A DNA stretch of 64,000 nt from Chitinibacter sp. GC72 (GCF_009760905.1 NZ_VIRW01000004.1:39665-103664), one strand, 5' to 3'. Shown: positions 5,393 through 35,151, counted from the stretch's first letter. Translations and numbers: made by a program. Notes: generated by a model not told the origin, from the letters alone.

Positions 5393-5757
5393 TCTGCACT
5401 TATTTATGCTGCTGCGGTGTCGTTACACGAATAAATCTTAATGGCTGGCGTTGTAGCGCCTGAATTGAAATCCATTCTGGGATTGATCATGCCCACAATG
5501 GGTTTTTGTTTGCTTGCTGGTAGCCATTCTCAATGAGGCTGGTGCGAGTTATTGGCGCGGGATTTTTTGAAAGGAAGCGATGGATTCGGCTTAAGAATAA
5601 TCAGAAATCACTTTAAATTTAGCTGACATACGGTAGTTGGATCGGTACGATATCAGCACGTCATCAGGGCAAAAATACATCAGTGGGTATGGGGTGGCAG
5701 CCGATAATCGATATGGCCTTCAGCGACATACCCCTTAAATCAAGTCTGGATCGCAAA

Positions 5758-6105
5758 ATGAGAAAAATCCTATTGCTGATTGCATTACTCGCGATGGCCA
5801 GCGCCCAAGCTGGCGTGGTCGAGCAAACCACCCGCGAAGCTGGGCGCGGTTTTGCCAAGGGCATAAACGAAGGAACAGCGCAAGCATTTGAAAAAATGCT
5901 CGATAACAACGACAAACGAATGAAACAAAACGCAGCGGACGCCAAACGCAAGCAGCGTTTGGCGAATATTAGTGGCTGCGCGACCAATGCGAAGCGTACT
6001 TCATGCAAGTGCTTTGATAAGCAGGGATCGATTGAGACGATTCTGGATGAGAAGCAGTGTATGGAAGTGGTGAATCGCGGGTTGGCGGCAGTGAATGATT
6101 TTTAA
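5758..6105 (+). CDS. Small secreted/periplasmic protein (signal peptide, 4 Cys), first gene of island operon
   Basis: MRKILLLIALLAMASAQA signal peptide, then a Lys/Asn-rich mature region with CATNAKRTSCKCFDKQG...C. AT-rich codon usage. The ORF track starts at 5683. Confidence 0.5.
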   Translation: MRKILLLIALLAMASAQAGVVEQTTREAGRGFAKGINEGTAQAFEKMLDNNDKRMKQNAADAKRKQRLANISGCATNAKRTSCKCFDKQGSIETILDEKQCMEVVNRGLAAVNDF

Positions 6106-6128
6106 AGTGATTCTGGGATAGCGAGTGA

Positions 6129-7223
6129 ATGAAACGACTAAGTAGGTGTAATAAACAAAGATTAATCCGTTTGGCAAAAATTAGAGCTAATCACAAGAGT
6201 TCTAGAATAAAGAAAAAAGTATTAATTGGCTACATACTCAATGGTACTGGTTTTGCTAAAAAGAAAAGAAGCTCTTATGTTACTGTGAAAATTGTGGCTC
6301 CAATATCATTTAACTTGTATCAGGCCGCACGTAGGCAAAATTTAATAGTTTTTATTGATGAGATAAAAAGAGCGATTAAAGCAAATGCTTCAATCAGAAT
6401 AGATTTTAGTCATGTAAAGAGATTGAATCCGTGTGGTACAATTTTATTTATTGCTGAATTAATGAGGATTATTGAGCTGAAAGGCAATAAACAGCGGGTT
6501 ACTTGTACTTTGCCGAAAGATAAGATTGTTGAGCAGCTATTTAAACATGTAGGTATTTTAGACTTACTTGGTTGCAGAAGTAATGTTGTTGTTCAGCATG
6601 AAACAGTAAAACACTGGACTTTATGTAAAGGAGATCTTGTTGATTTGTCTGGGTTAAAAAGCTTAAAAGATAAGTTAGATATTGAATTGGGTGAAGAAAG
6701 AAGTTTTGCATTATTCACAGGCATACAAGAAGCGATTACTAATACGGTTCATCATGCATATATTGAGGAACGTGGAGATGGCTTCGATGCATCAAGTAAA
6801 AAATGGTTCCTTTTTGCAAAGCACATGGAAGGTCAGGTATCATTAGCAATCTGTGACTTAGGCATCGGGATTCGTCGATCATTGCCGAGAAAAATGCCAT
6901 GGCCAAAACAAATTTTTGATGAAACGCTTGAAAAGTTGGGTGCAAATACAGATCTCGATGCTAAGCACATAAAGGCGGCAATTATGTTGGGTGCAACCAG
7001 AACAGGACTTAGTAATCGAGGGAAAGGTTTACATGACATGAAACATGTTGCGAGCTTGTGTGAGAATGGCCGTTTGGATATATTGAGTAATAAGGGTGTT
7101 TACCGCTTTAGCAAGAAAATAAACTCTGAAATTATTCTTGACCATAAAAGTAATATCCAAGGCACTATTGTGCAATGGGGATTTAATACAAGTGATTATT
7201 TAGGATCAGAAAATGCTGATTAA
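6129..7223 (+). CDS. GHKL-superfamily ATPase / RsbW-SpoIIAB-like Ser/Thr kinase domain protein with unknown N-terminal domain
   Basis: C-terminal half carries N-box GIQEAITNTVHHAY (compare RsbW EAVTNAIIHGY), G1-box LAICDLGIGIRRS and G2-box SNRGKGLHDM. The N-terminal ~190 aa have no recognisable motif. Confidence 0.7.
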   Translation: MKRLSRCNKQRLIRLAKIRANHKSSRIKKKVLIGYILNGTGFAKKKRSSYVTVKIVAPISFNLYQAARRQNLIVFIDEIKRAIKANASIRIDFSHVKRLNPCGTILFIAELMRIIELKGNKQRVTCTLPKDKIVEQLFKHVGILDLLGCRSNVVVQHETVKHWTLCKGDLVDLSGLKSLKDKLDIELGEERSFALFTGIQEAITNTVHHAYIEERGDGFDASSKKWFLFAKHMEGQVSLAICDLGIGIRRSLPRKMPWPKQIFDETLEKLGANTDLDAKHIKAAIMLGATRTGLSNRGKGLHDMKHVASLCENGRLDILSNKGVYRFSKKINSEIILDHKSNIQGTIVQWGFNTSDYLGSENAD

Positions 7224-7533
7224 TATAGCTAAGGATTTTTCACCATTTGCTGCTGGTCGTTATCAGACTGATGGGCCCTGCTCTGGTGAAGCTTTTCGAG
7301 ATTTAGTTCTTGTTCCTAAACTTGAGCAACATAAAATGGAATTGGTGACTGTTAATTTAGATGGCACACTAGGTTTAGGTTCATCTTTTTTGGAGGAAGC
7401 ATTTGGTGGCTTGATCAGAAAGGGATTTAAGAAAGATTATTTACACTCCTATTTGATAATTGAGTGTAAACATCAATCTTATGTTGATGCCGCATGGTCA
7501 TATATCGATGGTGCAAATAATGATGGAAAATAG
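7213..7533 (+). CDS. STAS-like (DUF4325-type) small protein, putative antagonist/partner of the GHKL kinase
   Basis: 106 aa, overlaps the upstream gene by 11 nt. Motif LVTVNLDGTLGLGSSFLEEAFGGL resembles STAS-like DUF4325 proteins that occur next to HATPase_c proteins. Confidence 0.6.
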   Translation: MLINIAKDFSPFAAGRYQTDGPCSGEAFRDLVLVPKLEQHKMELVTVNLDGTLGLGSSFLEEAFGGLIRKGFKKDYLHSYLIIECKHQSYVDAAWSYIDGANNDGK

Positions 7534-8035
7534 TTGGTTTGATTTATATCGCTCTGTGATTGCACCTACTATTGCTATTGTCTTGGTTGTTATTGGATGG
7601 TTATTGGTTTCTAGAGACAATAATAGACGTGAGTTGAGAAAAGAGCTTAGAGGTATTTCATCCGAAATAGGTAAATTAGGCGAAGTTCTTTCGGAAAAGT
7701 GTTATCAATATTTCTCATCTGTAGAGGATGAAGATAAAAGATATCAGCTGGCTTTCGAAATTAAGACGGTTTTGGATAAAATTGAAACGAGTTTTTGTGG
7801 TATGTCAAAAATCAATAAAAACTTCAAAAATGAGTTTCTGGTTTTGAATTTGAGGGGTGCGGTTACTAATAACCAGTTTTTTGAGACGGCTAACTTTAAA
7901 CGACTTGATGCTCGTGATCAGATTCATTTGAATATTAAATTGAAAATTAAAGATATTGAAACTCATATTGACGAGGTTATTTTAAGAACGTATGTGATCA
8001 ATGGTGTAAGAGATTTTTTCTCTTTTTCAAACTGA
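7522..8035 (+). CDS. Membrane-anchored hypothetical protein (single N-terminal TM helix, coiled-coil/Lys-rich cytoplasmic part)
   Basis: ATG overlaps the stop of the previous gene (aATGAtggaaaatag). TM helix VIAPTIAIVLVVIGWLLV. The ORF track frame starts at 7460, but MMENSW at 7522 is the coupled start. Confidence 0.55.
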
Positions 8036-25704: not shown

Positions 25705-25937
25705 GATTGATCGTCACCGGGATGATTCCAGTTATTACTCTTACTACCAAACTGTTGAATATACAAATCAAATTAAGTAATGAGCAGAGCTGCAGAAAGG
25801 ATGCGCCTTGCCATTAACCGTTCATCAGCGGTGCAAGGTTACATCCCGCAACAACGCCGTGCTTTGATTTGTCCCTCGCCGCATATATGCTGCAGACCAT
25901 TCTATTGATCAACCGTACTGTAAAGGAGAAACAAATC

Positions 25938-25976
25938 ATGCAAAACACCACCACATTCTCCGCAGTCCGCGCCTAG
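25938..25976 (+). CDS. Candidate 12-codon leader mini-ORF MQNTTTFSAVRA upstream of rtcB2
   Basis: Strong RBS taaAGGAGaaacaaatcATG, ~90 nt upstream of the RtcB2 start. Confidence 0.2.
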   Translation: MQNTTTFSAVRA

Positions 25977-26068
25977 CTTGATCGAGATTTCCTCGCTGTA
26001 AATCCTTCGTCTTGCCCAGGGCTGCGGCCTGCCACATCAAATATTTCAAAAATTGATATGGATTTATC

Positions 26069-27208
26069 ATGGGCACAAACGTACAAAATCTGTCTGCGCG
26101 CGTTAATTTAATCGCGGCAGCAGACACCTGGATCGAAGGCGATGCGATTCAGCAGCTCCAAAACACCGCCAAACTCCCCGGCATGCAATACGTTTCCGGC
26201 ATGCCGGATTTACACCCTGGCCGCGGCTATCCGGTTGGTGCGGCTTTTTTCTCTACTGAATACATTTACCCGGCGCTGATTGGTGGCGATATCGGCTGCG
26301 GTATGGCGCTCTGGCAAACTAATCTGGACGCCAGAAAAGTCAGCCTCAGCAAGCTGGAAAAGAAAATCGGCAATATCGATGGCCCCTTGGACGAAGAATG
26401 GCAGGCTGTGATTGCCAGCCAATTACCTGCCGAAATTGGTTTCCGGCAAGCGCTGGGTACTATTGGCGGTGGCAATCATTTTGCCGAATTGCAGTGCTTC
26501 GACGAGATTCACGATGTTGAAGCATTTGCGGCCTTGGGGCTGAACAAAGCGCAGCTGCAACTGTTGGTACACAGCGGCTCGCGTGGCTTGGGGCAGCATA
26601 TTTTGCGCCAGCATATTGACCAGCACGGCCATCAGGGTTTGCTGGCCGACTCAAAGGAATGCCGGGCGTATCTGGCCGAGCATGATCAGGCGGTGCGTTT
26701 TGCCGAAGTAAACCGGCATCTGATTGCGCAGCGCATTCTGGCGAAACTGGCTTGCGATGGGTCGCAAATTCTCGATGTGAATCACAATCTGGTGCTGCCA
26801 GCACAGATGCACGGCCAGCCAGGCTGGATACATCGCAAAGGCGCAACGCCAGCCGATCAAGGCGCGGTGGTGATTCCCGGCTCGCGCGGTGATTACAGCT
26901 ATCTGGTTCAACCCATGCCCAGCGACATCAGCCTGCAATCGCTCGCGCATGGCGCGGGTCGCAAGTGGATGCGCAGCGAATGCAAAGGCCGCTTGAGTGG
27001 CCGCTATACCGTCGCGCAATTGAGCCGCACCAAGCTCGGCAGCCAGGTGATTTGCGCCGATCGCGCGCTGATTTACGAGGAAGCGCCGGAGGCCTACAAA
27101 CCGGCCAGCAATATCATTGCTACCTTGGTCGGCGCAGGGTTGGTCAAAGTGATTGCGCGGCTCAAACCCGTGCTCACCTACAAAACGCGTGGGGAGTGCT
27201 GCGAATGA
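26069..27208 (+). CDS. RtcB-family RNA ligase, PrfH-associated paralog (RtcB2)
   Basis: RtcB metal/GTP motifs (GGDIGCGMA, GGNHFAE, HSGSRGLG, HGAGR). Translationally coupled (ATGA) to the downstream prfH. Confidence 0.85.
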   Translation: MGTNVQNLSARVNLIAAADTWIEGDAIQQLQNTAKLPGMQYVSGMPDLHPGRGYPVGAAFFSTEYIYPALIGGDIGCGMALWQTNLDARKVSLSKLEKKIGNIDGPLDEEWQAVIASQLPAEIGFRQALGTIGGGNHFAELQCFDEIHDVEAFAALGLNKAQLQLLVHSGSRGLGQHILRQHIDQHGHQGLLADSKECRAYLAEHDQAVRFAEVNRHLIAQRILAKLACDGSQILDVNHNLVLPAQMHGQPGWIHRKGATPADQGAVVIPGSRGDYSYLVQPMPSDISLQSLAHGAGRKWMRSECKGRLSGRYTVAQLSRTKLGSQVICADRALIYEEAPEAYKPASNIIATLVGAGLVKVIARLKPVLTYKTRGECCE

Positions 27209-27825
27209 GTTTAATGCAAATCTCCGCCGCGCAAGGGCCGCAGGAATGCCAGCTGGCGGTCGCCAAAGCGCTCGGCCGTATGATTGAAGAGGCCGCACAG
27301 CGCAAGCTGGTGCTGGATCTGCTGGAGCAAGAAGCTGGCGATAAAGCTGGTACTTTGCGCTCGGTATTGCTCAGTATTGATGGCGAAGGCGCAGATCAAC
27401 TGATCCGGCAATGGGAGGGTACGATCCAGTGGATTTGCGCCAGCCCGTATCGCCCCCGGCATCTGCGCAAAAATTGGTTTATTGGTGTTTTTCGCTGCGC
27501 CACGCCTGCGAGCGATCTGGCCAATGAAATCCGTTTTGAAACGACGCGTTCATCTGGCCCCGGCGGGCAGCATGTCAATAAAACCGAATCGGCAGTGCGC
27601 GCCACGCATATCGCCAGCGGCATTACGGTGAAAGTGCAAACCGAGCGCAGCCAGCATGCCAATAAACGGCTGGCCGAGCAGCTAATCGCCCACCGTCTGG
27701 CCAGCCGCGCTGCGGATGAGTTGGGCGCACAGCGCGCAGAACGACGCTTGCAGCACTACCAGCTAGAACGCGGCAGCCCGAAACGGGTTTTCAAGGGCGA
27801 GCAATTTATTGAAAACTTAGCCTGA
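27205..27825 (+). CDS. prfH: Peptide chain release factor H (PrfH)
   Basis: GGQ motif in SSGPGGQHVNKTESAVRATH. Short (~207 aa) RF lacking the codon-recognition domain. Downstream of RtcB2. Confidence 0.85.
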   Translation: MSLMQISAAQGPQECQLAVAKALGRMIEEAAQRKLVLDLLEQEAGDKAGTLRSVLLSIDGEGADQLIRQWEGTIQWICASPYRPRHLRKNWFIGVFRCATPASDLANEIRFETTRSSGPGGQHVNKTESAVRATHIASGITVKVQTERSQHANKRLAEQLIAHRLASRAADELGAQRAERRLQHYQLERGSPKRVFKGEQFIENLA

Positions 27826-27903
27826 TTGGGTATTGCCATGTAGCTCATATTGGATATGGCTTGCATGGCAATACCCTGCAGATTAAAGATTGGGAGTGAA
27901 GCA

Positions 27904-28251
27904 ATGGCACAAAAATCAGAGCGCACCAAGGTCCTGTTTATTTGCAGCCGCAATCAGTGGCGCAGCCCGACGGCCGAGCAGCTTTGGCGCCAGCATCCGC
28001 GGCTGCAAACGCGCTCGGCGGGCACCAGCCCGAATGCGCGGCATACGGTGTCGGTCGATGATATTCGCTGGGCGGATGTGATTTGCGTGATGGAAGAAAA
28101 GCACCAATCACGGCTGCGCGCGCAATTTAGTCGCTTGCTGAGCAACAAACCCATCCATGTGCTCGATATTCCCGACGACTACCAATTTATGGCGCCAGAG
28201 CTGATCGATCTATTGGAGCAATCGGTGGCTGGCATTCTTGACCTTAACTAA
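27904..28251 (+). CDS. Low-molecular-weight phosphatase-like protein (LMW-PTP/ArsC-type CX5R P-loop)
   Basis: KVLFICSRNQWRSPTAEQ matches the C(X)5R(S/T) P-loop of LMW protein-tyrosine phosphatases. 115 aa. Follows prfH on the same strand. Confidence 0.65.
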   Translation: MAQKSERTKVLFICSRNQWRSPTAEQLWRQHPRLQTRSAGTSPNARHTVSVDDIRWADVICVMEEKHQSRLRAQFSRLLSNKPIHVLDIPDDYQFMAPELIDLLEQSVAGILDLN

Positions 28252-29275
28252 CAACTATCTCTACGCCGCCTTCCACCTGCGTTTGCGTGATATTAACGGG
28301 CAGAAATTGCCTGATCACGTCGATATTACTCAGCAAATGCGCTGACGCGTGCGTTGTCGTAAAGCGCCCCGACCCTGCCAGCGCAAAAGCCAGCACCAAC
28401 TGATCAGCCAAAAACTCGTCCACTGCCGCGCCGCTATGCAAATAGCGCTGCACCTGATGTGCGACTTGCTTGCCGACCGCTTCGGCGCTGACGCCTTTTT
28501 CGCCAAAGCTGGTGAACATTTCGGTGATATTTTCATGCTCAATTTCAATCAGCACCGCATTGCCGGGGCCTTGATCGTTGCTGAGCCCGCGTACCGCAGT
28601 GCTGACGCCAGCAATTTTTTGCTCGATTTCGGCCAGCTCACGCTGCGCGACTTTGGCCGGCACACCCGCAATCAGCGCCGTGGCGCTAATACTGCGCAAA
28701 GCACCGCGCTGGCACAGATCGAAACCCTGCAATGATGGGCACGGCGACACTGTCGCGCAAATTTCGCCACCGCCCGCCGGATAAAAACCGTGCCGCTTTA
28801 GTGTGATTTCTTGCTGCACGCCCATGCGCGCCATCAGCGGCTGCCAAACGCGAATTAGAAAATCGGCCGGCGGCGCGGCTTTATTGTGCGTACCACCCTT
28901 CACCGACACAGAGCTGGGCGCATCGGCAAACCACAGCGCAGGTAATATCGTTTGCAGCACCAGCGTACAGCTACCGGCGGTGCCAATCGCAAAATGGTAA
29001 TCGCCAGCGCGAATCGCGCCGGGCTTGAAACTGAGCGACGTTGAGCCGATCTGAGCGCCGGTCATCTGCGCCCCGCAAATCGCCGCCGCAGCTTCAACCG
29101 CTGTTAAATGCTGGCGTAGCAAGCCGGGTTTGGGGCGCTTGGCGCGGATATTTTTAATCTGGAATGCCTGACCCGTGATCATTGCCAGCGTCAGCGCACT
29201 ACGCAAAATCTGGCCACCGCCTTCGCCGCTAGCGCCGTCGATTTCAATGAGTTGTTTGTTCATTATTATTTTCAC
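28244..29275 (-). CDS. rtcA: RNA 3'-terminal phosphate cyclase
   Basis: IDGASGEGGGQILRSALTLAMITGQAF...LLRQHLTAV; end-to-end similarity to E. coli RtcA. Confidence 0.9.
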   Translation of the reverse strand: MKIIMNKQLIEIDGASGEGGGQILRSALTLAMITGQAFQIKNIRAKRPKPGLLRQHLTAVEAAAAICGAQMTGAQIGSTSLSFKPGAIRAGDYHFAIGTAGSCTLVLQTILPALWFADAPSSVSVKGGTHNKAAPPADFLIRVWQPLMARMGVQQEITLKRHGFYPAGGGEICATVSPCPSLQGFDLCQRGALRSISATALIAGVPAKVAQRELAEIEQKIAGVSTAVRGLSNDQGPGNAVLIEIEHENITEMFTSFGEKGVSAEAVGKQVAHQVQRYLHSGAAVDEFLADQLVLAFALAGSGRFTTTHASAHLLSNIDVIRQFLPVNITQTQVEGGVEIVVS

Positions 29276-29336
29276 TTCATATTAAAACCGCAGTGCTGCC
29301 GTGCCATTGATGAAGACGTACAGCCGCTGCGATTTT

Positions 29337-30143
29337 CTAATTGCTGTGTTGCAGCACCGCTTGGCGCAATAGCTGATCCAGCAAAGCCTGCTGGCCATTG
29401 GGCTTGCGAAAGTCGGTACTCGTCTTATGCTGCTCCGCCAGTTGGTGCTCGATAAACGCATGAATCAATGGAAAGCGCGCGCCATATTCAGCCTCGCCTG
29501 AGCGCATTTTGATCGCCAGTAATTCATTGACTTCACGTACCAACTCAGGCTGATCTTTGAGCATGACTTCGGCCAAAGCGGCAAACTTCATCGGTGGCAT
29601 GCCCAGGCCTGCGTCTATCCACTGCATGGCCAGCAAGGGGCGTAACACGTACAGGTACTTCTTCATCCGCACGGACTCGCTTTGCAGATAGCCACGGAAA
29701 TTCTTTTTGGCCATCGACACATAATGCCAGTGTGCTTTTTGTTCGGAAAAATAGTCGCTCATCAAACCACGCAATGGCTCGGTGAGCGTCGCCTGTTCCT
29801 GATAAATGACTGGCGAATCCAGCCATTCAAACAAGGTCGGATTGGATTTGCCCAGCAAGGCCAGCGCTTTGCGCAATTCCCAACCGCAAATATCGAGCTC
29901 ATCGCTGATCGGCACTTCGATCACATCGCGCTGCGGGGTGACGCTGAGATACCAATCAAGGCGATGAACATAGACAAAACGCACGTCGTAATCGCTATCG
30001 GGCGAAGCAAAGCCCCAGCCACGGCTGCCCGATTCGCAAGCGAACAGAATCGTGACATTGTGACGCGCTTCAATGGCTGCGAGTTCGAGCTGGATGCGCT
30101 CTGCGATTGCCGGATCGATTGGATGTTCACTCAGTATTTTCAT
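29337..30143 (-). CDS. Pol-beta-superfamily nucleotidyltransferase (COG3541-like) embedded in rtc operon
   Basis: CESGSRGWGFASPDSDYDVRFVY contains the G[SG]...D.D nucleotidyltransferase signature. Lies between rtcB and rtcA on the same strand. Confidence 0.65.
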   Translation of the reverse strand: MKILSEHPIDPAIAERIQLELAAIEARHNVTILFACESGSRGWGFASPDSDYDVRFVYVHRLDWYLSVTPQRDVIEVPISDELDICGWELRKALALLGKSNPTLFEWLDSPVIYQEQATLTEPLRGLMSDYFSEQKAHWHYVSMAKKNFRGYLQSESVRMKKYLYVLRPLLAMQWIDAGLGMPPMKFAALAEVMLKDQPELVREVNELLAIKMRSGEAEYGARFPLIHAFIEHQLAEQHKTSTDFRKPNGQQALLDQLLRQAVLQHSN

Positions 30144-30146
30144 TTT

Positions 30147-31367
30147 CTATCCTTTCACACACACCACCTGACGCAGCGTATGCACGACTTCGACCAGATC
30201 GGATTGCGCGGCCATCACGGCGTCGATGTCTTTGTATGCCATCGGGATTTCGTCGATCACGGCTGCGTCTTTACGGCATTCGACGTGCGCGGTGGCTTTG
30301 ATCTGGTCTTCCACGGTAAACAGTTTCTGCGCCTTGGTTCGGCTCATCGTGCGACCGGCGCCGTGGCTGCAGGAACAGAATGATTCTTCATTTCCTAGCC
30401 CGCGCACGATAAAGCTTTTCGCTCCCATCGAACCCGGAATAATCCCCAGCTGGCCTTTCTGTGCCGACACCGCGCCTTTACGCGTTACCAGTACTTCGCT
30501 ACCAAAGTGCGTTTCTTTCTGTACATAGTTATGGTGGCAGTTCACCGCTTCCACATCGGCAGCAAACGGTTTGGTGATGATTTTGCGCGCGGCTGCGATG
30601 ACGTTTTGCATCATCACCATACGGTTACGGCGCGCAAAATCTTGCGCCCAACCCACGGCTTCGACGTAATCGTCAAAATGCTGGCTACCTTCGGTGAAGT
30701 AAGCCAAGTCGCGATGCGGCAAATTGGCAATGTGCGAGCGCATATCGGCCTGCGCCAATTCGATAAAGTGCGTTCCAATCGCGTTCCCTACCCCGCGTGA
30801 ACCGGAATGCAACATAAACCAGACGCGGTTTTCTTCATCGAGACACACTTCGATAAAGTGGTTTCCCGTTCCCAAAGTCCCCAAGTGCTTATGGTTATTG
30901 GTGTTTTTCAAGCGCGGGTATTTATCGGTAATGCGCTTGAAGCCTTCATGCAACTCACCCCACATCGTGTCGACCGACGCGGGTGGCGTATCCCACGAAC
31001 CTTTATCGCGGCCCGCGCGGCTATTGGTGCGACCATGCGGTACAGCGGCTTCAATCGCGCTACGCAATCCGGCCAGATTGTCGGGCAAATCGCTGGCAGT
31101 CAGCGTGGTACGCGCCGCCATCATTCCGCAGCCGATATCAACACCAACGGCGGCAGGAATAATTGCGCCGTGCGTGGGGATCACGCTACCGATGGTGGAG
31201 CCTTTCCCCAGATGTACGTCGGGCATTACGGCCAGATGTTTAAAAATAAACGGCATTTTGGCCGTGTTGATCAACTGCTCGCGTGCTTCGTCTTCGACCG
31301 GAACGCCGCTGGTCCACAGCTTGATGGGCTTACCGTTTTGTACTTGCAAAATATCAAACTTGCTCAT
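30147..31367 (-). CDS. rtcB: RNA-splicing ligase RtcB
   Basis: 406 aa. Motifs GVDIGCGMMA, GTGNHFIE, HSGSRGVG, CSHGAGR. Confidence 0.9.
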   Translation of the reverse strand: MSKFDILQVQNGKPIKLWTSGVPVEDEAREQLINTAKMPFIFKHLAVMPDVHLGKGSTIGSVIPTHGAIIPAAVGVDIGCGMMAARTTLTASDLPDNLAGLRSAIEAAVPHGRTNSRAGRDKGSWDTPPASVDTMWGELHEGFKRITDKYPRLKNTNNHKHLGTLGTGNHFIEVCLDEENRVWFMLHSGSRGVGNAIGTHFIELAQADMRSHIANLPHRDLAYFTEGSQHFDDYVEAVGWAQDFARRNRMVMMQNVIAAARKIITKPFAADVEAVNCHHNYVQKETHFGSEVLVTRKGAVSAQKGQLGIIPGSMGAKSFIVRGLGNEESFCSCSHGAGRTMSRTKAQKLFTVEDQIKATAHVECRKDAAVIDEIPMAYKDIDAVMAAQSDLVEVVHTLRQVVCVKG

Positions 31368-31432
31368 GCTCTTTCCTTTGTAGGGGTATATTGTTGTGGC
31401 TTATTTCGGGTAATACCTGCAGGGATATACCC

Positions 31433-32569
31433 CTATTTACCTAACTTGATCATGCCGTTGAGCAATTGATCAAACCCGCCAAAAACCGAGATTTTATCGA
31501 TCCGTTCGGCCAGTTTTTCCAGCGTTTCCAGCTCTTTCAGCCGTAGCGCGGTTGGGTTGTCTTCCATCACTTTGGCGGTATTGAGCAGCGAGCGCGTCGC
31601 GCCGGTTTCTTCGCGGCGGCGGATTACATTGGCCTGCGCGGCTTTTTCGGCCTCGACCACTTGTGCCAGCAGCATTTTCATTTCGCCGGGCAGCACAATA
31701 TCCTTCACGCCCACGCTGTGTATGCACATCCCCAATCCGGCCAGCCGGGTGCGCATATGCGCAGCGACCACGTCGTCGATCAGTTGTTTGTTTTCCAGCA
31801 ATTCGTCCAGCGTGCGGGTGCCCACCGCTGCACGCAAGCCAAACTGCAATTCGCGGTACAGAAAATCCACAGGCTTGGGCAGCTGGGTAAATGCCAGCTC
31901 GATATCGGTCAACTGCCAGTTGGCCGCCAGATTGAGCCGCAAGGAAACTTTGTCCCGGGTCAGGATTTCCTGCCCGCTCACTTCGACGGTTTGCTGGCGG
32001 GTATCGACCAGCTCAACGGCCAGCTCGCGGCCAAAACGCCAGAAGCCATAACGCCCAGGCTTGAGCTGGCGCTGGAATTGGCCGTTGCTATGCAGCAGGC
32101 CGATATGGCTTTCCGGCACTTGCACCTGCAGCACGGTGTTGTTGTTGCGTATGGTTTTGGCGCGCAGCGCGGCCTGCGTCAGCGTTGCCAGCACCGCAGG
32201 CGACAATTCAAATTGCGTACGCAAGTCGATGCGCTCAAAAGTTTGCGGCGCGGCGGCTTTCCAGTACAGCTGGCGTGAGCCGGGCAGCAGGATTTCAGCC
32301 AGTACGCCATTTTCATAGCGCAGCGCCGCTTCGTGGTCGGCCAGCTCGACACGCTGGAAATGCGTCTCGACCAATGCGGCCTCATTACGGCACAGATAAT
32401 CGGCCAGCGCGTGGGTAAAGGCGGCCTCGTCGAGCGAAAAGGTCAGCAAGGTATAGCGTTTGGGCCAGTTCCACAGATGAAATTCACCGGGTTCCAGCAG
32501 TTTTTGTACATCTCCGTTGCGCAGCAACAGGCCACGTTCGTTCTTTTTAACTTGAAAGCGTTGCCACAT
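31433..32569 (-). CDS. SPFH/band-7 (slipin-like) domain protein, first CDS of the rtc operon
   Basis: SPFH core (VSLRLNLAANWQL...VKDIVLPGEMK) with C-terminal coiled coil. Confidence 0.7.
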   Translation of the reverse strand: MWQRFQVKKNERGLLLRNGDVQKLLEPGEFHLWNWPKRYTLLTFSLDEAAFTHALADYLCRNEAALVETHFQRVELADHEAALRYENGVLAEILLPGSRQLYWKAAAPQTFERIDLRTQFELSPAVLATLTQAALRAKTIRNNNTVLQVQVPESHIGLLHSNGQFQRQLKPGRYGFWRFGRELAVELVDTRQQTVEVSGQEILTRDKVSLRLNLAANWQLTDIELAFTQLPKPVDFLYRELQFGLRAAVGTRTLDELLENKQLIDDVVAAHMRTRLAGLGMCIHSVGVKDIVLPGEMKMLLAQVVEAEKAAQANVIRRREETGATRSLLNTAKVMEDNPTALRLKELETLEKLAERIDKISVFGGFDQLLNGMIKLGK

Positions 32570-32639
32570 TTTTATTCTCCTTATTTAAAACCCGGCTGCA
32601 GCGCAGTGCGGATGTGCGGTTGACCAGCGCATGGGCAGG

Positions 32640-32995
32640 AACAAGGGGAGCAGCCCAAGATTGCGGCATTTCCTGTTGTTCCCGCTGATGCGCGGAGAAC
32701 CGGACACCGGCGGCATTGCTGCGGTGGCTCAATGCGCCACACCGGGTACTGCGTGTTTCGTTCGTATGCCCTTGCAGGCGTGGAGCGGGAGTCGAACCCG
32801 CGACAATCGGTTTCATCAACCGAGGCTCTATCCAGTCTGAGCTATCCAGAGGTGGTGAACCGGGAATCGAACCCGGATAACGCAAACCATTGCCATCACC
32901 GTTATGCAGGAGATCATCGGGCGGTATACCCACTGGCAAAACGCCAGCAGTACCGGAGCGGGGTGAGAGCCGCTACCTGTTGCCGGTCAGAGCCG
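32640..32995 (-). ncRNA. Y-RNA-like (YrlA-type) structured leader RNA containing tRNA-mimic modules
   Basis: Minus-strand sequence between the sigma54 start (~33003) and the SPFH gene. It contains ...GGCAATGGTTTGCGTTATCCGGGTTCGATTCCCGGTTCACCACC followed by a near-complete tRNA-like unit with D-arm AGCTCAGACTGGATAGAGC, anticodon-like arm TCGGTTGATGAAACCGA, T-arm GCGGGTTCGACTCCCGC and a shortened acceptor. No ORF. Confidence 0.55.
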
Positions 32996-33014
32996 ATCTG
33001 CATGGCTAATTAAT

Positions 33015-33030
33015 AGCAACGGCTGTGCCA
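33015..33030 (-). promoter_or_regulatory. sigma54 (-24/-12) promoter of the rtc operon
   Basis: Reverse complement reads TGGCACagccgTTGCT, a perfect GG-N10-GC spacing. Positioned ~430 nt upstream of the first CDS with the Y-RNA-like leader between. Confidence 0.8.
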
Positions 33031-33134
33031 GTTTGGATTTTTGGATTTTTAATTTATTCAATGCACTGATTTTTAATGAAAATATCCGTTTTGATCTAGC
33101 ATTGGCCTCATATTTCCATCTGGATTGATCGGAG

Positions 33135-33160
33135 AATGACGATATAATCAGATCGTCATT
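33135..33160. promoter_or_regulatory. Perfect palindrome AATGACGAT-N8-ATCGTCATT (candidate RtcR UAS / autoregulatory operator)
   Basis: 9-bp inverted arms. ~120 bp upstream of the sigma54 -24 element and overlapping a TATAAT hexamer (33143-33148) 32 nt before the rtcR ATG. Confidence 0.5.
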
Positions 33161-33179
33161 TATCTAAAAAGATAAAAAT

Positions 33180-34769
33180 ATGAAGCGCACAGTGGTGTTT
33201 GGCTTTGTTGGCACGGTGTTGGATTTTGCCGGGCGGGGTAGTCAGCGTTGGGAAAAGTGGCGGCCAACAATCGGTTTGTGCCAGCACGATGATGTGCTGA
33301 TCAGCCGGATCGAGCTGCTGCACGATAGCCGCAGCAAAAGCCTGTTCGAGCGCCTGAAGCAGGATATTGCGCAGGTGTCGCCCGAAACCGAGGTGGTGAG
33401 TGTTGAGGTGAATCTGAGCGATCCGTGGGATTTCGAGGAGGTGTATGCCTGCCTGCACGATTTTGGGCGCAGTTATGAGTTTGATGTTGAAGCCGAGGAT
33501 TATCTGATCCACATCACCACCGGCACGCACGTGGCGCAGATTTGCTGGTTCCTGCTGGCCGAGGCCTGCTACTTCCCCGCGCGGCTGGTGCAAACTTCGC
33601 CGCCGCGCAAGCGCGAAACCGATGGCGTAGCGGGCAAATACACGCTGATTGATCTGGATTTATCGCGCTACAACAAAATTGCCAGCCGCTTTGCCCAAGT
33701 GCGCGACGAAGCGGTGTCGTTTTTAAAATCAGGCATTGCCACGCGTAACCCGCGCTTTAACCGGATGATCGAGCAGATCGAGCGCGTCGCGATACGCTCG
33801 AAAGCGCCGATTTTGCTGTGCGGGCCAACGGGCGCAGGCAAATCGTTTCTGGCGCGGCGAATTTATGAAATGAAGGTGGCGCGCCATCAAATCAGCGGGC
33901 GCTTTGTCGAAGTCAATTGCGCCACGCTACGCGGCGATAGCGCGATGTCGACTTTGTTCGGGCATGTGAAAGGCGCATTTACCGGCGCACAAACCGAGCG
34001 CGCAGGCTTGCTGCGCAGTGCTGACGGCGGGCTGCTGTTTCTGGATGAAATCGGCGAGCTGGGTCTGGACGAGCAGGCCATGCTGCTCAAAGCTATCGAG
34101 GAAAAGCGCTTTTTCCCTTTTGGTAGTGATAAGGAAGTCACCAGTGATTTTCAGCTGATTGCCGGGACGGTGCGCGATTTAAAACAGTGGGTGGCTGAGG
34201 GTAAATTTCGCGAGGATTTGTATGCGCGGATTAATTTGTGGCTGTACGAGCTACCCGGTCTGGCAGAGCGCAGCGAAGATCTGGAGCCCAATCTGGATTT
34301 TGAATTGCTCCGCTTTGCCAAAGAGCAGGGCGAGCAAGTGCGGTTTAATTCAGAAGCTAAGCAGCGGTTCTTGAAATTTGCTGCTTCAGCGGAAGCTAAA
34401 TGGTCGGGCAATTTTCGCGAACTGTCGGCCGCGGTGACGCGGATGGCGACGCTGGCAGAAAATGGCCGCATTACGCTGGCGCAGGCCGATGAGGAAATCG
34501 ACCGGCTGCGCCTGTCCTGGCAGCTTAGCTCGCCAGGCGTGATTGATGTAGTGTTGGGTGAGCGCGCTAGCGAGCTTGATCTGTTTGACCGGCTGCAACT
34601 CGAGCGGGTGATTCAGGTGTGCCAGGCCGCCGATTCGCTCTCCGACGCCGGGCGGCGCTTGTTCAATATCTCGCGGCAGGAAAAAGCCAAAAGCAATGAC
34701 GCCGACCGGCTACGCAAATATCTGGCGCGGTTTGGGCTGGATTGGGCGAGCGTGAAAGGTACGCGCTGA
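33180..34769 (+). CDS. rtcR: sigma54-dependent transcriptional activator RtcR (CARF-like N-domain + AAA+ + HTH)
   Basis: AAA+ sigma54 activator motifs ([31 protein letters not shown]-like [12 protein letters not shown]). N-terminal non-receiver domain as in RtcR. Divergent to the rtc operon. Confidence 0.9.
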
Positions 34770-34826
34770 CTGGCGCGGAAAAACAAAAAGCCCCAACCGA
34801 AGTTGAGGCTTTTTGCTTAATTCGTG

Positions 34827-34899
34827 TGGGTCGGGAGGGATTCGAACCCTCGACCAACGGATTAAAAGTCCGCTGCTCTACCGACTGAGCTACCGACCC
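34827..34899 (-). tRNA. tRNA-Lys (anticodon TTT)
   Basis: rc: GGGTCGGTAGCTCAGTCGGTAGAGCAGCGGACTTTTAATCCGTTGGTCGAGGGTTCGAATCCCTCCCGACCCA. Canonical cloverleaf; CCA not encoded. Confidence 0.9.
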
Positions 34900-34911
34900 A
34901 GAGGTCTTGTG

Positions 34912-34984
34912 TGTGCGATGGTGGGTCGGGAGGGATTCGAACCCTCGACCAACGGATTAAAAGTCCGCTGCTCTACCGACTGAG
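34912..34984 (-). tRNA. tRNA-Lys (anticodon TTT), second identical copy
   Basis: Identical 73-nt sequence, 12 nt from the first copy. Confidence 0.9.
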
Positions 34985-35151
34985 CTACCGACCCGCGTCG
35001 TCACATACAGAGATGCGCATTATAAGGTTATTTTCGCGCCTGTCAACGATTAATCTGCAGAAATTTTGCCCGGCTTTGGCATTATGCCGCGCGACTAGCC
35101 GCGCTGGCTCGCGGTAAACTACCGCCCTATTGTTGAAAAAAAGGAAAAATC

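Follow-up and report, generated by a model that had tools for sequence, protein, structure and literature searches.

The region between positions 26069 and 34769 of a 64-kb stretch of DNA from Chitinibacter sp. GC72, termed the window here, very probably holds two independent and already described modules for RNA repair, placed tail to tail in Chitinibacter. The first is an operon for a Band-7/SPFH protein, the RNA ligase RtcB, the nucleotidyltransferase RlaP and the cyclase RtcA, with the gene of the activator RtcR divergent from it, and the second is the rtcB2-prfH pair encoding another RtcB-family ligase and release factor H. The region was analysed together with the rtcB2 leader (25864-26071), the genes being located by open reading frame (ORF) listing and profile searches, and was compared with 80 genome loci fetched around relatives of the window Band-7 protein, 54 of them RtcR-adjacent, and with about 15 true PrfH loci from a metagenome scan, seven of which have at least 10 kb of flanking sequence.

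Two proteins of the region match database entries of strain GC72 at 100% identity. The two units are convergent, and the stop codons of rtcA (minus strand) and of a small phosphatase-like gene behind prfH (plus strand) overlap by 8 bp at 28244-28251. No terminator-like site was found between them in a terminator scan, so transcription of each unit would continue into the other in antisense orientation. Outside the window, PrfH and RtcB2 occur within 10 kb of the Band-7 gene only in L001, a locus of another Chitinibacter (sp. S2-10), and in none of the 78 other Band-7 loci; RtcR, Band-7, RlaP or RtcA are near PrfH in none of the seven metagenomic PrfH loci with long flanks. The rtcB2-prfH copies in E. 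coli, Ralstonia, Methylosinus and plasmids stand alone. A sigma-54 control of rtcB2 was considered and rejected, there being no motif upstream on the right strand with up to two mismatches allowed. With the adjacency confined to L001 and no sigma-54 motif before rtcB2, a general functional coupling of the two modules is not supported, and it is apparently in one genus only that they lie side by side. A preliminary description of this DNA had reported two adjacent, convergent systems with two RtcB paralogs, one coupled to PrfH and the other in an RtcR-type operon, all of which holds (the paralogs are 29% identical); its further proposal of a dedicated joint island does not survive the comparison.

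Gene content and promoter of the rtc operon

The operon reads on the minus strand and opens with the gene for the Band-7/SPFH ('slipin') protein of 378 amino acids (31433-32569), which carries a Band_7 match and an SPFH domain at 150-321. It is followed by rtcB (30147-31367), encoding a canonical RtcB 3'-phosphate RNA ligase of 406 amino acids that matches the Pfam RtcB family over its full length with 440.7 bits. The next gene, rlaP (29337-30143), encodes a Pol-beta-type nucleotidyltransferase with a match to PF10127 covering positions 2-249 of 249 (318.8 bits), and the last, rtcA (28244-29275), encodes the RNA 3'-terminal phosphate cyclase (NF003246, 470 bits; Pfam RTC, 273.6 bits, with RTC_insert). 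The full-length match of rlaP and its place between rtcB and rtcA, beside an RNA ligase gene, identify it as a member of the RlaP family, which takes its name from the association with RNA ligases. Two members encoded in rtcB-rlaP-rtcA operons of Pseudomonas extend RNA 3'-OH ends by one or two nucleotides (PMC12776372). Divergent from the operon lies rtcR (33180-34769, plus strand), whose product is a CARF-domain sigma-54-dependent activator (NF038308, 846.9 bits against a curated cut-off of 650 bits) with PF06956 (RtcR, 282.6 bits) at residues 2-185 and PF00158 (Sigma54_activat, 170 bits) at residues 187-353.

Between rtcR and the operon a sigma-54 promoter, TGGCACagccgTTGCT, is located at 33030-33015 on the minus strand. 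It is an exact TGGCAC-N5-TTGCW and the one such match in the whole 64 kb, and 38 of the 54 RtcR-adjacent loci have the strict sigma-54 consensus at the corresponding position. The unique match and the recurrence of the site make the dependence of the Band-7-RtcB-RlaP-RtcA operon on RtcR and sigma-54, as put forward in the preliminary description, well supported at the level of sequence. The position of the motif would place the transcription start near 33004 and give a leader of about 430 nt. A group of Band-7 loci without neighbouring RtcR (L010, L023, L039, L045, L056, L062, L064, L071 and L078) carries a conserved motif, TGGCCGCGCGCCTGC (TGGCCGCGCGGCTGC in L023), with -24/-12 spacing at about -535 to -575 from the Band-7 start and upstream of the tRNA-like modules, which suggests that these loci are under sigma-54 control by a different activator.

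The order RtcR<>Band7-RtcB-(RlaP)-RtcA is found in most of the 80 loci, which include Chitinibacteraceae, many Pseudomonas, Acidovorax, Delftia and others, and no Ro60/TROVE gene is present in the rtc operon of the window, as had been noted earlier. The earlier statement that the gene complement is not the textbook rtcBA arrangement is right in that it differs from the complement of E. coli, but it is not unusual, being by its gene content a known and common variant that recurs in dozens of genomes. Repeat proteins were seen in or near some repair operons, with a HEAT-repeat protein after rtcB in one Pseudomonas aeruginosa strain (L171, 8422-9795) and another two genes downstream of prfH in Methylosinus (L176, 4050-4609). 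Directly after rtcR in the window are two tandem tRNA-Lys(UUU) genes (34826-34994) with a perfect TTGACA-16-TATAAT promoter (35019-35046, minus strand), and apart from this sigma-70 promoter a terminator and promoter scan of the region gave nothing above shuffled expectation. None of the window genes beyond rtcR was matched in L001, where this neighbourhood is apparently not conserved.

Structure of the Band-7 protein

The sequence of the Band-7 protein shows no evident transmembrane segment. Its AlphaFold model (mean predicted local distance difference test score, pLDDT, of 81.6) is composed of two N-terminal beta-rich repeats, the SPFH domain and a long C-terminal helix, with stomatin and HflK/C as the best structural matches. 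The N-terminal domain modelled alone (pLDDT 89) matches SPFH proteins only, and weakly, and a weak Band_7 match is also found there by Pfam. A cage resembling that of the major vault protein, prompted by long Foldseek alignments, was rejected as the N-terminal domain alone shows no vault repeat. Given the missing vault repeat and the weak N-terminal Band_7 match, the protein is read from its model, and treated here, as a soluble oligomer of the SPFH type whose SPFH-like beta units are duplicated. The family has more than 7800 members annotated as 'slipin family protein', including that of P. aeruginosa, whose gene lately received the name PaFlo8 and is placed within the rtc locus (PMC13086221). 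The protein is proposed as a partner of tRNA-like RNAs on the analogy of Ro60 and Y RNA in Salmonella (PMC7790460).

tRNA-like leader of the rtc operon

The operon leader (minus strand) contains two tandem tRNA-like modules, and a spacer of 207 nt (32570-32776) in which a long hairpin is predicted separates them from the Band-7 start codon. Module 1 (32900-32850) is a mini-tRNA with a GGUGA/UCACC acceptor, one hairpin and a T-arm (32876-32860), followed by ACCU. Module 2, the band-7-associated tRNA (32777-32849), is a full cloverleaf that is reported by ARAGORN (32851-32777) and scores 35.9 bits with the Rfam tRNA model, in agreement with the tRNA-mimic leader of the preliminary description. 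Two T-loop motifs placed 66-82 nt apart occur in nearly every Band-7 locus at a fixed distance from the Band-7 start.

In an alignment of 48 distinct module 2 sequences, 96% of the cells are paired compared with 34-50% in controls with the partners slid, and compensatory changes are present at 16 of the 24 pairs, giving a covariation score of 0.43 against 0.06-0.10 for the controls. The D-stem is invariant and the anticodon stem covaries at all five pairs, and the 'anticodon' loop is variable in sequence and length across the loci, tetraloops included. The acceptor of module 2 has only 4-6 bp with no CCA after it, and in the window it measures 4-5 bp and a G occupies position 33 in place of the invariant U, so that window module 2 has neither the 7-bp acceptor nor the U33 and conserved anticodon loop of a genuine tRNA gene. 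A conserved cloverleaf adjoining a Band-7/SPFH gene that stands beside RtcB is the arrangement of the band-7-associated tRNA system. The prediction of a 'band 7-associated tRNA' beside Band-7 and RtcB is credited in bioRxiv 10.1101/312249 to Burroughs & Aravind 2016, and the RNA is described there as not yet validated by experiment in 2018; the arrangement with RlaP is likewise credited to Burroughs & Aravind 2016 where that work is cited in bioRxiv 10.1101/312249 and PMC12776372.

Module 1 differs between lineages. Pseudomonas has another full cloverleaf here (56 bits with the Rfam tRNA model), without CCA. Burkholderiales have a mini-tRNA of about 50-60 nt with a 7-bp acceptor, one hairpin, a T-arm and NCCA directly before module 2, and the acceptor sequence differs between lineages with the complementarity kept. 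The Chitinibacter form has a 5-bp acceptor and ends in ACCU.

A reading of the leader RNA as a YrlA-type Y RNA, or merely as decayed tRNA genes, in place of a distinct band-7-associated tRNA pair draws on matches to the YrlA model (RF02553) of 29.8 bits at 32797-32896 in the window and 34.5 bits in the Pseudomonas locus L018 (9619-9670), both below the gathering score of 69. It appears highly improbable, as the operon has no Ro60 gene and the leader no Ro-binding stem, the strands that YrlA joins as an acceptor hairpin pair here with distant partners and show covariation, and in about 70 loci belonging to several orders the leader keeps a fixed position with respect to both the promoter and Band-7. 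The same sub-threshold matches span the junction from the module 1 T-arm to the module 2 D-arm, which hints from sequence at an evolutionary relationship between the tandem modules and Y RNAs of the permuted YrlA type. A match across this junction fits the processing reported for M. smegmatis YrlA, in which RNase P cuts in the acceptor hairpin and CCA is added (PMC4201824). The distinct pair of leader modules would be released as stable RNAs by tRNA-processing enzymes.

The RtcB2-PrfH module

The second module is composed of rtcB2 (26069-27208, plus strand), encoding the PrfH-associated RtcB-family RNA ligase of 379 amino acids (TIGR03073, 579.8 bits; NF007153, 578.2 bits; Pfam RtcB, 256 bits), and prfH (27205-27825, plus strand), encoding release factor H of 206 amino acids (TIGR03072, 295.7 bits against a curated cut-off of 167 bits). 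The TGA of rtcB2 and the ATG of prfH overlap as ATGA at 27205-27208, and the two genes are translationally coupled. The release factor belongs to the GGQ equivalog without RF domain 1. Its alignment with E. coli PrfH (PDB code 7SA4; residues 1-203, 252 bits) runs from end to end and shows the GGQ, and it is of the tail-less E. coli type without the C-terminal tail of the Flavobacteriia subfamily, as the subfamilies are defined in PMC12829566. With a PrfH-type RtcB directly upstream of prfH and the stop and start codons overlapping, the genes form an RtcB2-PrfH pair, a characterised 16S rRNA repair pair (PMC9304027, PMC9223846, PMC13166195); only the E. coli and C. gingivalis proteins have been shown to repair 16S rRNA that is cleaved between A1493 and G1494 (PMC9304027, PMC12829566). 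On a conjugative IncC Klebsiella plasmid (L177, 838-2549) rtcB2-prfH and its leader reading frame lie directly beside sul1, so that the ribosome-repair pair travels with resistance genes.

Downstream of prfH a gene on the same strand (27904-28251) encodes a small protein of 115 amino acids resembling low-molecular-weight protein tyrosine phosphatases and ArsC. A CX5R(S) loop (CSRNQWRS) and a DIPDDY stretch are present, and the match to PF01451 (LMWPc, 26.8 bits) is weak and partial, covering positions 1-43 of the 144-position model, with the best PDB match at E = 7e-4. The protein has 6053 homologs, typically 70-75% identical across Betaproteobacteria. The gene identities named in the preliminary description were all recovered at or very near the positions proposed for them, and the assignments of the repair genes far exceed the curated cut-offs and extend over the full length of the families.

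Upstream reading frame and alternative pairings in the rtcB2 leader

The region before rtcB2 (364 nt) holds a short upstream open reading frame (uORF) with its own Shine-Dalgarno (SD) sequence and a conserved stretch with a hairpin. The uORF (25938-25976, plus strand) has 12 codons, encodes MQNTTTFSAVRA and is preceded by a strong SD, AAGGAG, at 25923-25928. Downstream of it are leader element 2 (UUGCCC AGGGCUGCGGCCUGCC, 26012-26033), which has alternative pairing partners, and the hairpin CCACAUCA/UGAUAUGG (26032-26039 with 26054-26061), which holds the rtcB2 SD and in which the conserved stretch ends. A putative sigma-70 promoter, TTGATT-16 nt-TATGCT, was read from the sequence at 25864-25891 (plus strand) with 8 of 12 matches, below the promoter-scan threshold; better matches are found at the equivalent place in Ralstonia (TTGCGA-17-TAGTAT) and E. 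coli (TTGCAA-17-TAGTAT). A promoter of this type at 25864-25891 would drive rtcB2-prfH.

Twelve proteobacterial rtcB2 leaders were compared, those of the window, L001, a Ralstonia-like metagenomic contig, E. coli ATCC 11775 and plasmid or megaplasmid records from Ralstonia (three), Proteus, the Klebsiella IncC plasmid, Methylosinus, Tritonibacter and Rhizobium (loci L001, L084, L172-L178, L181 and L182 besides the window). The layout of the window leader is repeated in L001, the Ralstonia-like contig and E. coli ATCC 11775, whose leader peptide reads MTNPLSMTLCRPFQD. Each of the 12 leaders has a single frame of 12-16 codons with an SD in front of it, and the distance from the start of the frame to rtcB2 is 112-152 nt. 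Such a frame is found in only 8% of shuffled leaders and is missing from three non-proteobacterial rtcB2 loci. The leader peptides are poorly conserved and the leader RNA is conserved.

In the window, element 2 is predicted to pair either with the 3' end of the uORF (-21.1 kcal/mol) or with the rtcB2 start, AUGGGCAC (-10.7 kcal/mol), and the footprints overlap by 5 nt. The equivalent element of eight beta- and gammaproteobacterial leaders, at -63..-35, can pair with the frame 3' end at -13 to -29 kcal/mol or, at -9 to -13.5 kcal/mol, with the rtcB2 start region AUGGGCAA; the footprints overlap by 5-10 nt such that the two pairings are mutually exclusive. Both are supported by compensatory changes, between frame and element in Ralstonia (GCAGGCC/GGCCUGC), E. 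coli (GCAGAC/GUCUGC) and Proteus (GCGGACA/UGUCCGC), and between element and start in E. coli (UGCCC/GGGCA), Proteus (UGUCC/GGACA) and the Klebsiella plasmid (CUGCC/GGCAG), the Proteus change costing a Gly-to-Asp substitution in the protein. A switch is predicted from pairing probabilities obtained by partition-function folding with ribosome-like blocks: a block over the 3' part of the frame leaves the start region paired with the leader element at P 0.43-0.75, and a block over the frame start alone gives P 0.00-0.47 for this pairing, with at most 0.21 in six of the eight leaders.

The uORF and its alternative pairings are tentatively read as a translation-sensing attenuator that reports ribosome damage, a reading given somewhat less than an even chance of being correct. 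Healthy ribosomes would traverse the leader frame, leaving the leader element to pair with the rtcB2 start and mask rtcB2-prfH. Ribosomes crippled at the decoding centre would stall at or near start codons and fail to traverse the frame, the 3' end of which would then capture the leader element, freeing the rtcB2 start for translation of the repair pair. The accumulation of colicin E3-cleaved ribosomes at start codons (PMC13166195) fits this proposed signal, and the direction of the switch is the one that we infer from the pairings. Several points weigh against the attenuator. It is a product of folding predictions only, and several of the duplex energies are no better than shuffled controls in GC-rich leaders. 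Under the ribosome-like constraints the accessibility of the rtcB2 SD region (-14..+6) changes in no consistent direction, the start-codon region (AUG..+9) alone behaving consistently and in beta- and gammaproteobacteria only, and the predicted switch is missing from three alphaproteobacterial leaders that have the uORF. No description of the rtcB2 leader, its upstream frame, its native regulation or the E. coli leader peptide was found in the RtcB2-PrfH literature searchable here.

Alternative interpretations of the locus

The 115-residue protein could belong to the RtcB2-PrfH module as a third functional component, such as a phosphatase that heals RNA ends, and the preliminary description had counted it to the repair locus as an extra phosphatase. 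Its gene follows prfH on the same strand in the window and L001, its CX5R loop is intact, and the general 'syntax' of RNA-repair systems set out by Burroughs and Aravind in 2016 is said to take in end-modifying phosphatases. The pairing recurs once outside Chitinibacter in the loci examined, in the unrelated metagenomic contig L095 (39-1072), where a homolog with 62% identity begins 14 nt after a prfH whose product is 42% identical to the window PrfH; this is a hint and no more. Close homologs in other genomic contexts have RNA-repair neighbours in none of five cases, the gene is missing from 13 of the 14 other PrfH loci that have downstream sequence, and the E. coli, Ralstonia and Methylosinus rtcB2-prfH loci are also without it. 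A role in the module is on this evidence quite unlikely, and the gene is, judged by its genomic distribution, a common stand-alone gene and probably a bystander.

The independence of the two modules has to be weighed against two accounts in which they belong together. They might form one integrated, co-regulated RNA-damage island, with RtcR and sigma-54 directing both ligase systems as a single programme, as their convergent adjacency and their shared concern with damage to the translation apparatus would allow. The locus of Chitinibacter sp. S2-10 speaks for some form of linkage: the block from rtcR to rtcB2 is kept whole there, 86-98% identical at the protein level, though both flanks differ from the window, so that selection for linkage or joint mobility is possible, and this counts against plain independence. 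The block is not unaltered, an Ank-Kelch gene being inserted after rtcB (L001, 12475-14722) and rlaP being split into two frames. Against a single programme stand the lack of a sigma-54 motif upstream of rtcB2, the occurrence of the conserved rtcB2 leader in genomes with no neighbouring rtc operon (E. coli, Ralstonia and plasmids) and the distribution over the Band-7 and PrfH loci given above, which make it decidedly improbable. Alternatively, the block of about 9 kb might be a mobile or horizontally exchanged repair and defence islet that moves as a unit within Chitinibacter. Besides the wholly different flanking genes of the two genomes, this would accord with the known horizontal spread of PrfH-RtcB2 (PMC6514570), the presence of rtcB2-prfH on conjugative plasmids and the two tRNA-Lys genes abutting rtcR. 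It seems unlikely nonetheless, with neither integrase nor transposase nor repeat seen in the scanned flanking genes, ordinary chromosomal neighbours (GGDEF-EAL, glyoxalase, citrate transporter and phosphoketolase) and a GC content equal to that of the surroundings, and the comparison is one of two genomes. Two independent modules are thus retained as the preferred interpretation, with joint inheritance or transfer of the block within Chitinibacter being possible.

Elsewhere in the window a low-GC islet at 5683-8035 (GC 0.36 compared with about 0.56) has a strong GC skew and four ORFs, one with a DUF4325 STAS-like domain and the others without a Pfam match, and may be a horizontally acquired element.

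Proposed model

In the model drawn from these comparisons, damaged tRNA fragments with 2',3'-cyclic phosphate ends would bind the CARF domain of RtcR, by analogy with Salmonella, and ligand-bound RtcR would then open the sigma-54 promoter at 33030-33015. The two tandem tRNA-like modules of the leader would probably be excised as stable RNAs and probably partner the soluble Band-7/SPFH oligomer, mirroring the Salmonella Ro60-Y RNA. RtcB would seal 3'-P or 2',3'>P ends to 5'-OH ends, RlaP would add back one or two missing nucleotides and RtcA would cyclise 3'-phosphates. On the other strand rtcB2-prfH would run from its own sigma-70-type promoter through the leader with the 12-codon frame, PrfH would free the peptide on ribosomes that have stalled because their 16S decoding centre is cut, and RtcB2 would then re-ligate the rRNA.

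The locus as such adds little, both modules, the tRNA-like RNA and RlaP having been predicted or characterised earlier. The comparative data provide a concrete, covariation-backed two-module model of the band-7-associated tRNA and show experimenters which RNA species to seek, module 1 often being a mini-tRNA whose encoded NCCA end coincides with the expected site of RNase P cleavage. The rtcB2 leader elements are present in E. coli strains with an intact operon and are directly testable there, and a leader attenuator, if true, would explain how the RtcB2-PrfH repair system is switched on. The switch proposed for the leader reading frame is one fresh, testable regulatory hypothesis in an otherwise ordinary locus.

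Comparison with known systems

Translational attenuators of the ermC type have a short frame with a strong SD and alternative pairings among three elements by which the start further downstream is masked or freed. The rtcB2 leader shares these features; in contrast, no drug-specific stalling peptide is evident in it because the peptides are poorly conserved, and the proposed signal is a general failure to traverse the frame. The rtcB2-prfH operon of E. coli ATCC 25922 and ATCC 11775 (PMC9304027, PMC9223846) has the same overlapping stop and start, a tail-less PrfH and a leader of the same kind, with an SD-preceded short frame and a AUGGGCAA start, but lies between yafP and pepD, far from rtcBA, and has no phosphatase-like gene downstream.

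For the other module, E. coli rtcR-rtcBA shares RtcR, the sigma-54 promoter, RtcA and RtcB (74% nucleotide identity) and is without the Band-7 gene, the tRNA-like leader and RlaP. The Salmonella rsr-yrlBA-rtcBA locus (PMC7790460) has in common with the window the RtcR/sigma-54 control, rtcA, and a candidate scaffold protein and tRNA-like non-coding RNA upstream of rtcB, these being Ro60/TROVE with YrlA/YrlB in Salmonella compared with Band-7/SPFH and two separate tRNA-like modules in the window, where RlaP is also present. A further closely related system is the Pseudomonas locus rtcR/Band-7 (PaFlo8, PA14_60630)-rtcB-rlaP-rtcA (PMC12776372, Carruthers et al. 2025; PMC13086221). Its module 1 is a full cloverleaf without CCA, whereas that of the window is a reduced mini-tRNA ending in ACCU, and the accessory genes vary among relatives, a HEAT-repeat or Ank-Kelch protein being inserted in some. 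The two loci share the divergent RtcR, the order of the operon genes, the position of the sigma-54 promoter and the tandem tRNA-like leader, and their Band-7 proteins are 61-62% identical.

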